DNA of 64,000 nt from the NCBI GenBank assembly GCA_963713605.1, contig CAVQMO010000015.1, positions 64,001-128,000 of the forward strand, written 5' to 3'. Under the pieces are notes generated by a model. It did no database searches and was not told the origin of the DNA. It saw only the letters and a list, made by a program, of their open reading frames with translations. Every line of letters starts with the position of its first letter. Position 1 is the first letter of the stretch. Below are positions 15,542 to 50,757 of the stretch, piece after piece. The translations under genes and the position numbers were made by a program. The stretch is from an uncultured Nitrososphaerales archaeon (GTDB taxonomy: Archaea; Thermoproteota; Nitrososphaeria; Nitrososphaerales; Nitrososphaeraceae).

Positions 15542-15575
15542 CAATGTTCGAAAGATGTACCAATGATCTTAAATA
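15542..15575 (+). promoter_or_regulatory. Operator site 2 plus TATA box
   Basis: CAATGTTCGAAAGATGTAC-8 nt-TTAAATA; ATG at 15599. Confidence 0.7.
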
Positions 15576-15598: not shown

Positions 15599-16244
15599 AT
15601 GAAAAGCAAAATTCTTGCTGTTACTTCTATAATAAGTATTAGCATGGTATTGATTCTTGCATCTATTGGACTGCATCCTGTATCTGGACACGAAAGAAGA
15701 CTGTATACTATCGGCGATCAAAACTATCTCTTTGTAGTAGGTTCAATGAATGAGCCAGCGTTTGTGGACGACAAATCAGGGGTTGAAGTCTTCACATGGC
15801 TCGCCTGATCCGACCGATCCTATGAATTCCCAAGCAAATGGTACAAAGCCTATTGAAGGATTGACTCTCAAGGCAGATGTATCTGCAGGAGGAAAGAACA
15901 TGACCCTAGATCTGGAACCGGCATTCAGAGATCCAGGACATTACGAGGCAGTATTCTATCCAACAGTACCAACTACATACAACTATACAGTATATGGAGA
16001 TATTAATGGTACTGCATTCCGTGATACGTTCACATGCAGACCTGCTGGTGAATCAGAACCCGCCCAAGACAATTCAACGATAACTGTATCAGATGGTGTT
16101 ACTAGAATAGGTCAATCTGGAGGATTTGGTTGTTTCGAATCAAGAGCTGATGTGTCATTCCCAGAACAGTATGTATCAAATTACGAGCTACAACAGATGT
16201 TAAGCGAACTGCGGGGAACCTCTAACGCAACATCTCTGCCTTGA
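15599..16244 (+). CDS. Secreted protein with mature N-terminal His (putative Cu-binding), paralogue 1; frameshift near 15800
   Basis: VSG|HERRLYTIG...NEPAFVDDKSGV...PGHYEAVFYPT; similar to 19351-20019. Confidence 0.75.
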
Positions 16245-45373: not shown

Positions 45374-45827
45374 TCATGCAAGTAATAGATATTCCGAAAC
45401 AATGTTAACTTGTATTAAAAAAGGGAAGGCAGACGACAATGGTAAACATATGAAGCACTATTTTGTTCGTCGTCTGCCCTGAATTTTAGTATCAGCTTGT
45501 ATTCATTATACTACTCATTCCTCTAAGTCTGATCCCTTCCTAACTCGGCGAAGGGTAAGAGGTGACTTGTGACCTGTGAAAATAAACTCATGTCTATCAA
45601 CCAGGACCTCTATTATTACTATTCCAAGCCCACAGATCTTTTTTTATAATTTATTGTGTAAGTGGCCGCTGAATTACAGACATTCGCATGGTCTGCGGCG
45701 ACGACCTGCAGATTTAATGTCCATCTTCCTTCCAGGCCGTCCTACCTTTTCATTATTAGGAGTAACCTAGTTGCATTTTTCCTAATCTCTGCCAAGTATT
45801 AAGTACCGATTGTGAGTATTTTGAGAT

Positions 45828-45924
45828 GCCGTTAATCCCTATCGTGTGACCTTTTTGTGCGCTGGTTCCATCGACGGGTCACGAGCTGTCCGTGAGCCAA
45901 CGACGGGCGGCTAGCATTAATGGT
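45828..45924 (+). ncRNA. Candidate structured small RNA (three-way junction with loop-loop pairing)
   Basis: P1 45828-36/45916-24, P2 45842-52/45876-84, P3 45885-93/45903-11; G-U pairs favour the + strand; TTAAGTA at 45799-45805. Confidence 0.6.
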
Positions 45925-46907
45925 TAGGTTTCTTCTCTAGCCCTCCTACCTTGATATAGCCGCATTTCAGAAACCCTAAACTTCTCCATGTATGGGACAG
46001 ACTTCTTACATAAGCAATTCTAAAATCCGTTACCATCTGCGAATTCTATGATTGTGTCCTAATGTCAAATGATCGCCTACCTATTTTTAGTAGAATAACC
46101 AAGTTCCGGAATGTCTCTTAAAATAAAATGTAAAGGAATAGCACGGCAACTTAGTTCTGACAGAACCAAACAACCTGCACAAGGTTAGGGCAGCGGCGGC
46201 TAAAACGCTCATGAGATTAGACAAATTCTCTGGTCGCCGTACCTTCTTACTAATACTGATTGCGAAAGAAATTGACAGAGGGTATGAAAAGATATTGGCA
46301 AGAAGGAAGAGGAAAAAGTTTAAGATAGTAGAATTCTGGAACGGTAAAGCGGTAACACTACACCTTCCGTAACCTTTTTTTCCTCTTTCTGTTTTACACC
46401 TAACCCCCGTACGCCTCCTTGGGTAGTTCTCTTATCTCTCAGAGATATAATCTCTCTATCTTGCGTATTCAATCAGTACACAGCCACAAATAACTGAAGA
46501 ATTAAAGAATATCTCTAACATTATTGCAGAAAGTAAGGTCACAAGATGATAAATCATAACGATAGAGTTATTCATTCGTAAACCTATTGGGAATAAAGAG
46601 CTGATGATGAAGGGAGATTGAACGCTTAATTAGTAAATAATTAGTAGGATGCGAGGAACACTGACTGTTACTATTTGTATACATTCATACTATATTAAGA
46701 CATAAATCTATTATCAAATCAATTGTGGAAGATTAACTCCTTTCCAACCTTGATCGTAAATACCTTGGTAATGTTTTGTCAGTACGTATTATGACAGTAT
46801 TATTACCATTAATCATTTTTGATTGAATCGAGATTCTCAAATATGGAAGCATATGATAAAACTGTTGATTCGCTATTTTAGTATGTGTCATCTAGTCCTG
46901 CGGTAAT

Positions 46908-49739: not shown

Positions 49740-50757
49740 ATGCTCGAGGGAGCCAATGAATACGCAATATTGACATTTGCAGCAATAGGTACCGCTTTGT
49801 TTTTTGACTTTGTGAATGGATTCCATGACTCTGCTAATGCAATAGCCACTGTTGTAGGAACCCGTGTCCTCAAACCGCTTCACGCAGTCATTATAGCCGC
49901 ATTTGCAAACTTTGTTGGGCCGTTCATTTTTGGAACAGCAATAGCTACAACAGTGGGTAGTGGGATAATAGAACCACAATACTCTACTGTAGATGTTATC
50001 CTTGCTGGTCTGATAGGTGCAATAATCTGGGATTTAGTCACTTGGTATTTTGGTCTCCCTTCTTCGAGCAGTCATGCGCTTATTGGAGGTCTAGTTGGAT
50101 CCGCGTTGATCGCCGGAGGTGGGGGAGCAATAATAGTTCCAGGCGTTGAGAAAGTTCTGATATTTATGATTCTATCACCAGTAGCAGGCTTTGCGATAGC
50201 ATTTGTTCTGGCTATGATTATCATATATTTCTTTAAAGACTCAAAACCACTACTCATCAATCGAGTCTTTGGGAAGCTTCAGATCGTTTCAAGTACGTTT
50301 CTTTTCGTTAACCCATGGAGCGAATGACGGACAAAAGACTATGGGGGTCATAACAGCGTTACTTATTGCCGGAGGGTTTATGGGCTCAGAGGATTTTGTA
50401 GTTCCCACATGGGTTATAATCAGTGCCGGAGCAGCAATATCAGCTGGAACACTCTTGGGGGGATGGCGAATAGTAAAAACCATGGCGTTCCGTATTACCG
50501 AACTTAAGCCCTATCAAGGGTTTTGCGCTGAGACTGGTGGAGGAGTGATCCTCTCGGTAATGGCCGGTTTAGGAATTCCCGTAAGTACTACTCAAGCAAT
50601 CTCAGGTGCTATTATCGGAGTTGGGTCAACAAGAAGGCTTTCAGCAGTTAGATGGGGTATCGGAAAGCGAATTGTATTCGCATGGCTTGTCACTATTCCT
50701 GCTAGCGCGGTAATTGCATCTATTGTAATCATAATTATTCAAGGTATCCTCTATTAG
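49740..50757 (+). CDS. pit: PiT-family inorganic phosphate transporter (frameshift near 50300)
   Basis: NGFHDSANAIAT; GLPSSSSHALIGG; HGANDGQKTMG; GIPVSTT. Confidence 0.92.

Follow-up and report, generated by a model that had tools for sequence, protein, structure and literature searches.

Organization of the locus

The element under study occupies positions 45791-45956 of the window, the whole 64,000-nt stretch of DNA that was analysed, and forms part of an array of four units within 45420-46250. The genes beside this array encode a cupredoxin and a TMEM175-type protein. The flanks are not featureless: three more promoter/hairpin units lie in the same interval, and the next plus-strand feature 3' of the element is one of them. 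The comparisons described below indicated that the element most likely belongs, as one copy, to a family of short non-coding RNA (ncRNA) genes that is uncatalogued and occurs in one genus of ammonia-oxidising soil archaea. Each copy most likely bears its own promoter, and an end hairpin appears to be common to the copies (Table 1). The RNA would be about 125 nt long and the product of a stand-alone small-RNA gene.

Table 1. Features of the element at 45791-45956 and of the neighbouring units, in window coordinates.
Feature	Position	Strand	Observation
BRE and TATA box, promoter class C	45791-45805	+	Kept in homologues
AT-rich proximal element and putative start region	45816-45827	+	Conserved; start site predicted
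Family P1, 5' strand (RCCGT), probable RNA 5' end	45828-45832	+	Partner strand in alignment columns 68-72; paired in 89.6% of cells
P2 hairpin of variable length, loop containing GTTCCA	45842-45884	+	Pair probability about 0.9
Family P1, 3' strand, then single-stranded linker GAGCCAAC, candidate seed	45889-45901	+	Conserved, mostly unpaired
Family 3' terminal hairpin, variable loop, eroded in this copy	45902-45950	+	14 pairs, formed in 87.3% of cells
Short T-rich tail, probable 3' end	45951-45956	+	Sequence; homologue hairpins also precede T-rich tails
Neighbouring unit 1	45420-45510	-	Superfamily hairpin 45426-45480, arm score 21.4, z -4.16 on the minus strand
Neighbouring unit 2, degenerate, least certain	45639-45752	+	Class-B TATA, leader, eroded hairpin ending GGCCGTCCTACC and T run
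Neighbouring unit 4	46096-46248	+	Motif-A promoter 46096-46120, leader, superfamily hairpin 46187-46245

The preliminary description of this DNA had placed the promoter element TTAAGTA at 45799, 29 nt ahead of position 45828, and the sequence bears this out. At the site that it used for comparison, the TATA box at 15569 stands 30 nt before the ATG at 15599. Within the AT-rich proximal element, GTATT was identical in all three rows of the first alignment, and a G(T/A)ATT-type element was seen again in this region in an alignment of 21 rows. A scan for sigma-70 promoters and terminators, with models unsuited to archaea, found nothing. ARAGORN found no tRNA. A peptide of seven codons from the ATG at 45826 was rejected for lack of conservation, and comparison of the family copies revealed no conserved open reading frame (ORF).

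No Rfam 15 family reached its gathering threshold anywhere in the window, and the best match in 45500-46300 had an E value of 3.1. Thirteen homologue or superfamily loci gave no Rfam match at E<=0.5, ribozyme families included. The novelty proposed earlier has therefore survived the Rfam check, since no family matched. Resemblances to Y RNA, H/ACA RNA, HDV-like ribozymes and the 16S 3' end were considered and dropped as unsupported.

Other irregularities were seen around the array and elsewhere in the genome. A further inverted repeat downstream of unit 4 (46296-46390) is long, purine/pyrimidine in character and unlike those of the units, and the non-coding sequence at 46449-46800 is repeated at C10:862551, C10:368463, C11:18666, C15:77442 and C5:127093. 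At 49740-50757 of the window, a phosphate-transporter-like gene is split across two frames. The ACT-domain gene at G000:C1:443523-443972 (minus strand) has an open frame of 160 aa here, against about 300 aa in 13 relatives; this short frame and the split transporter-like gene may reflect indel errors in the assembly. The start of contig C12 (G000:C12:1-450) is very GC-rich compared with 38% for the contig, and is possibly contamination or a chimeric end.

Conserved structure of the family

The order of parts within a family unit was BRE/TATA, P1 around a variable P2 hairpin, the linker, a terminal hairpin of 13-14 bp and a T-rich tail. Of the 27 folded copies, 23 were aligned, and four truncated or internally deleted copies were excluded. 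In this alignment the two-domain structure had 87.9% of cells paired and a covariation of 0.215, which none of 500 shuffles equalled; these controls take no account of kinship, and close relatives make up many of the 23 rows. Slid controls of the same structure were only 37-49% paired. The first pair of P1 varied between A-U (11 rows), G-C (8) and G-U (3), with one row unpaired. The folding z score was -2 or lower in 18 of the 27 folded copies, many of which are near-palindromes that fold on the opposite strand too. The bias of wobble pairs toward one strand was weak (G-U in 36 cells against A-C in 20; 16 against 14 distinct types), which weighs against the small-RNA interpretation given below.

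The P2 stem changed its sequence and kept its pairing in L030, L031, L033 and L078. RNAalifold on a MAFFT alignment recovered just seven pairs of the 3' hairpin, at an energy of -1.0, because P2 aligns badly; covariation in P2 was therefore read from single folds and left uncounted. The linker reads GAACCCAT in the family consensus and GAGCCAAC here. Over 23 rows its G and one A were invariant and its C and another A at least 90% conserved, and it was unpaired in most minimum free energy (MFE) structures of the homologues. In 17 of the 20 copies where it could be measured, the core of the terminal hairpin, GGCTAG at 45909-45914 against CTAGCC at 45937-45942, had a probability of about 1.0. This probability was low in this copy (0), in the truncated L090, and in L034, for which the script picked a wrong motif.

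The present copy departs from the family in other respects as well. Its family fold lies 5.9 kcal/mol above the MFE, and family P1 keeps only three of five pairs, so this copy is divergent, whether through decay or through refolding. A switch, in which the 5' strand pairs with the 5' arm of the 3' hairpin, could form in many copies and with five of five pairs here. It was not preferred because the covariation of the first pair tracks the upstream partner.

Superfamily of promoter-plus-hairpin units

The 3' hairpin proved to be a member of a larger set with GGTAG...CTAC(C) arms. A search matrix seeded from this genome found 41 such sites in it, against 6-7 in shuffled sequence. Among the 39 top-scoring hairpins, 34 lay outside ORFs of at least 150 aa, which make up 49% of the genome, and they were often arrayed. 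Some 35 putative genes of this promoter-plus-hairpin kind make up the set in this genome, and the unit at 45791-45956 is one of them. The leader of unit 1 resembles sequences at C4:55104 and C10:135818 (E 0.12-0.42). Unit 2 gave weak matches to other units (E 0.42) and a z score of -0.32. Unit 4 had an arm score of 28.4 and a z score of -2.34, and its promoter matched motif A.

Motif A is a palindrome, TTCCGGAA, immediately before the TATA box. It occurred in 12 of 14 genomes of the genus and in none of 147 others, and at no more than one mismatch this genome has 10 sites, including that at 46096-46120 of the window. In the other genomes a superfamily hairpin followed within 170 nt at 23 of 28 sites, one short locus being excluded, and in none of 28 control windows. 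The motif stands almost only ahead of short hairpin units and not of ORFs, and it resembles an activator site for a dedicated small-RNA regulon. After the motif-A promoters at C4:54442 and C12:95867 (both on the minus strand) come longer, related non-coding sequences without the usual hairpin, possibly another RNA family.

The orientation of the units relative to their promoters was visible in several features of unequal strength. An excess of T downstream fell on the promoter strand in 13 hairpins against 1 in a set of 14, and in 13 against 3 in a set of 18 parsed from 42. One stem pair varied between A-U (7), G-C (7), G-U (3) and A-C (1) among 18 oriented hairpins. Folding was better on the promoter strand in 10 cases against 3, and in 11 against 7 in a second set, a weak bias that weighs against the small-RNA interpretation, and the wobble bias toward that strand was modest. 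Five units (L121, L122, L125, L127 and L129) joined the same type of 3' hairpin to wholly different 5' domains and used different classes of promoter, a pattern suggestive of module swapping.

Homologues and distribution

Homologues were sought with a sequence-only model and with a structural covariance model, the latter promoter-free and with this copy in its training set. The covariance model matched 11 of the 14 genus genomes, with one to seven matches each, and none of 127 other genomes. The homologue search proposed earlier has thus yielded copies. The remaining three genus genomes had none, although one of them is 97% complete. With the sequence-only model, matches were found in 10 of 13 other genomes of the genus; outside it, two of 137 genomes gave weak partial matches (E 0.005 and 0.008), neither of which returned with the covariance model. 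A DNA search matched two of 60 relatives, both from the same genus and with unrelated flanks. After HMM scoring, 11 of the 32 metagenome matches from pattern scans were kept as true copies, as were 8 of the 13 genome matches; these eight came from Nitrososphaeraceae or Nitrososphaerales archaea. The other 21 and 5 were chance matches in GC-richer contigs and were excluded. In viruses, a first pattern matched 26 loci, none of which scored with the sequence-only model, and three further patterns matched nothing.

The position of the promoter was well preserved. The TATA box stood 28-30 nt ahead of the first paired base in 23 of the 25 copies in which one was detected, and the other two were start mis-calls that read 29-30 nt. 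Promoters were present ahead of full-length copies. Among the new copies found by the covariance model, L119, L124 and L132 carried the same TATA box upstream, and some carried a different promoter class. Between distant paralogues, similarity started at the BRE and stopped at the foot of the hairpin. Motifs and pairing were kept in spite of a mean column identity of 57%. The element was less conserved than one flank in one of five locus pairs and slightly more conserved in two others, which weighs against the small-RNA interpretation. Overall, promoter spacing, compensatory changes and the lack of an Rfam match supported the earlier proposal of an undescribed archaeal structured RNA, here a family of genes that would each have their own promoter; the three-way junction proposed as its conserved structure was not supported.

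Proposed mode of action and candidate targets

We favour the interpretation, with a probability of about 0.45, that the element belongs as a divergent copy to a multicopy (sibling) family of trans-acting small RNAs restricted to one genus. That the units are RNA genes of one kind or another is, over all such readings combined, quite probable. Transcription by the basal machinery would run from near 45828 to a point past 45950. Both ends of the RNA would be guarded, by the 5' stem and by the shared 3' stem with its U-tail, and these stems would also serve as a handle for a common RNA-binding protein, which we guess to be a chaperone of the Lsm/SmAP type. The linker and loops would then base-pair in trans with mRNAs and alter their translation or stability. 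The copies would multiply in the accessory genome by duplication at the DNA level, promoter included, and then diverge or decay. Duplication of DNA is proposed because copies of the RNA bring the external promoter with them and because the genome gave no match to reverse transcriptase. This copy, its family stems eroded, would have drifted into an alternative three-helix fold.

Pairing with targets was examined by prediction. When seven segments were compared with 3,738 start regions, only the linker of this copy showed a clear gain over four shuffles. It was predicted to form 12 Watson-Crick pairs over the UUG start of the ACT-domain ORF at C1:443523-443972, in a duplex of -32.2 kcal/mol against -25.0 to -29.4 kcal/mol for the four shuffles. 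The ACT-domain gene is present in all 14 genus genomes, and 17 other copies reached only -12 to -21 kcal/mol with their own orthologue. This predicted pairing, in one copy, is regarded as a lead only. The 420 genomic matches of loop 12-mers showed no enrichment (shuffled mean 366, maximum 471), and no conserved trans site was found for the conserved loop 15-mer of the short clade. A bolder extension, which we consider a long shot, is that an undescribed archaeal ribonucleoprotein is loaded through the shared 3' stem. In that case the roughly 35 units per genome, arrayed behind dedicated promoters and free to exchange leaders and loops, would form a programmable repertoire of guide RNAs (microRNA-like, or a guide array) that arose in one genus of ammonia-oxidising archaea, and this copy would be a guide with its linker over the ACT-domain UUG start.

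The lack of target enrichment in the loops, which weighs against the small-RNA interpretation, would be expected if the RNAs were made but acted as protein decoys or scaffolds. The shared 3' stem would then do the binding, and many copies behind different promoters would set the titrating dose. This agrees with the preservation of the stem sequence itself, beyond its pairing, across about 35 otherwise differing units, and with the use of at least three promoter classes to drive the same stem. However, subfamilies retain their own leaders and loops between species, which a pure sponge would not need, and no candidate protein is linked to the units. We consider a decoy role rather unlikely.

Possible mobility and DNA-level repeats

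The sibling small-RNA interpretation also has to be weighed against one in which the units are repeats at the DNA level, such as REP/REPIN-like sequences, remnants of MITEs or attC-like recombination hairpins. The TATA-like motifs would then be binding sites or passenger promoters, and any RNA incidental. Scattered, imperfect palindromes that carry GTAG and CTAC at their opposite feet and form arrays in gene-poor regions have this appearance. Deletions and partial duplications break within units (L054, L055 and L061), the strand bias is weak, and two of the eight tyrosine-recombinase matches in the genome lie within about 3 kb of a hairpin. However, the Y1 (RAYT) transposase (PF01797) occurred in only one of the 14 genus genomes and was absent from this genome, which is 87% complete and likewise gave no match to IS4/IS5-type, IS6-type DDE or IS110 transposases (PF01609, PF13610, PF02371) or to TnpB (PF07282). 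None of 35 hairpins was flanked by direct repeats of at least 5 nt that could represent a target-site duplication, and just five pairs among these hairpins were at least 80% alike. The fixed spacing from promoter to stem and the oriented T-tails are also at odds with simple DNA repeats. On this evidence, a function confined to DNA seems distinctly unlikely.

Specific types of mobile element were rejected on the same grounds. A MITE or IS end would call for a target-site duplication and a cognate transposase, and this 87%-complete genome showed neither. Reverse transcriptase (PF00078) and Ro60 (PF05731) likewise had no match in it; omega-RNA of TnpB, retron or other retro-element RNA and Y RNA were set aside, as no cognate TnpB, reverse transcriptase or Ro60 gene was found. 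At L061, and also at L077, a truncated and a full copy stand on either side of a small gene, and about 55 bp of promoter plus 5' end are directly repeated around it. By eye, this gene looks like one for a CDGSH-type iron-sulfur protein.

Alternative fold of this copy

The preliminary description had modelled the element as a tight three-way junction with kissing loops. Helices P1 (45828-45836/45916-45924), P2 (45842-45852/45876-45884) and P3 (45885-45893/45903-45911) are present at these positions and together make up the MFE structure, with pair probabilities of 0.68-0.99. The tightness of the junction could not be reproduced, as the CTA/TAG extension of P1 had a probability of only 0.05-0.15 and the MFE leaves 8 and 3 nt unpaired. 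Nor did stability exceed that of shuffled sequence (z -0.05 for 45799-45930, -0.59 for 45828-45956 and -1.62 for a trimmed 97-nt segment). Homology extends to about 45950-45955, past the 3' boundary given at 45930.

Across 23 copies, the junction with its loop pairing had 58.4% of cells paired and a covariation of 0.083, and 35 of 500 shuffles scored as high. The P1 of this model was paired in 53.6% of cells and its P3 in 57-63%, with no covariation signal. The partner strand of this P1 is the variable loop of the family 3' hairpin, P3 occupies the 5' arm of that hairpin, and P2 is the only helix that the two structures have in common. The boundaries and the junction model are thus largely wrong for the family.

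The complementarity between the two loops is present in the sequence at 8 of 9 positions (45860-45868 against 45894-45902), but a match at least this good arose in 6.8% of 20,000 shuffles of loop 2. In L031 the same loop-linker pairing also reached 8 of 9, and L078 could form 10 such pairs in a row (p = 0.002). The pairing exceeded shuffles in only one of 12 representatives, and the three positive copies showed no compensatory change in it. Loop-linker pairing is kept as a minor possibility of the predicted folds.

A functional three-way junction or P2 loop-linker pseudoknot, in this copy or in the clade with a long P2, might still act as an aptamer or ribozyme. In its favour, the three-helix fold dominates the prediction for this copy, and its P1 and P3 were created by several copy-specific changes on both strands. 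The results above argue against it, as does the genomic context: 26 loci had unrelated neighbours in either orientation, and no consistent downstream gene of the kind expected for a riboswitch or cis-leader. We therefore regard such a tertiary fold as improbable. Least probable of all is that the whole family is non-functional and its promoter-plus-hairpin pieces are carried passively by segmental duplications of the accessory genome. This would fit the number of copies with truncations or mismatches (53 of 437 cells unpaired), the patchy distribution and the multicopy accessory gene families in the flanks. Against it stand motifs and pairing that outlast sequence identity, and the sharp boundaries of similarity between distant paralogues. 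No neighbour or partner gene recurred beside the units, which favours the small-RNA interpretation.

Significance and comparison with known systems

If the sibling small RNAs are expressed, the genus would possess modular small-RNA genes by the dozen, built on a common stem and driven by dedicated promoters that are specific to the genus, and that one stem could be used as bait for a protein partner. The three-way junction does not bear on this significance. Gene duplication is reported to drive genome expansion in this lineage (PMC7603488), and expression of the family would mean that the expansion of soil-nitrifier genomes reaches ncRNA genes. The words 'repeat', 'intergenic' and 'non-coding' are absent from the main text of that study (PMC7603488). 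No description of the element was found in the literature, though one could sit in supplementary material, for instance in the motif tables that accompany ncRNA screens.

Three-way junctions with loop-loop pairing are known from the Alu domain of SRP RNA and from purine riboswitches. The likeness concerns the predicted topology of this copy only. It differs from both in having no Rfam match and a topology that is not conserved in the family, and the SRP RNA of this genome lies elsewhere (C1:336287-336596).

The superfamily shares with GTAG-tagged REP dimers and REPINs the dispersed extragenic palindromes, the outer GTAG, a variable spacer of 10-40 nt and the clustering (PMC3733652). GTAG stands at the hairpin foot in the superfamily and is eroded in this copy. 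Unlike REPIN-RAYT systems, the units have no RAYT-type transposase here, their arms contain no internal palindrome and the identity between copies is low. Unlike REPINs, they lie at a fixed distance behind a promoter and not downstream of genes.

Qrr and LhrC are bacterial sibling small RNAs. The family is similar to such RNAs in having several homologous genes per genome, some in tandem and with their own promoters (PMC5362039, in part), and accordingly positive genomes held one to seven matches with promoters ahead of the full-length copies. It differs from them in its archaeal promoter, in dozens of units instead of a few, in modular leaders on a common stem and in the lack of a common seed or target among those sought.

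Small-RNA regulation has been characterised in few archaea, whose small RNAs range from 50 to 500 nt, and a review on the subject does not contain the term 'Thaumarchaeota' (PMC5867862). Among the archaeal intergenic, trans-acting small RNAs that it covers are sRNA154, sRNA162 and sRNA41 of Methanosarcina mazei (PMC5867862). Unlike these, the present family has many diverged, arrayed copies per genome, one 3' stem behind several promoter classes and no Rfam match. In agreement with the features of archaeal intergenic small RNAs, BRE/TATA elements stood at a fixed distance outside ORFs and the family structure was conserved between species (relatedness ignored), with this copy deviating. Like the M. 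mazei RNAs as that review presents them, the family is intergenic, falls within 50-500 nt, has its own TATA promoter, is conserved within a genus and combines stem-loops with exposed single strands (PMC5867862).
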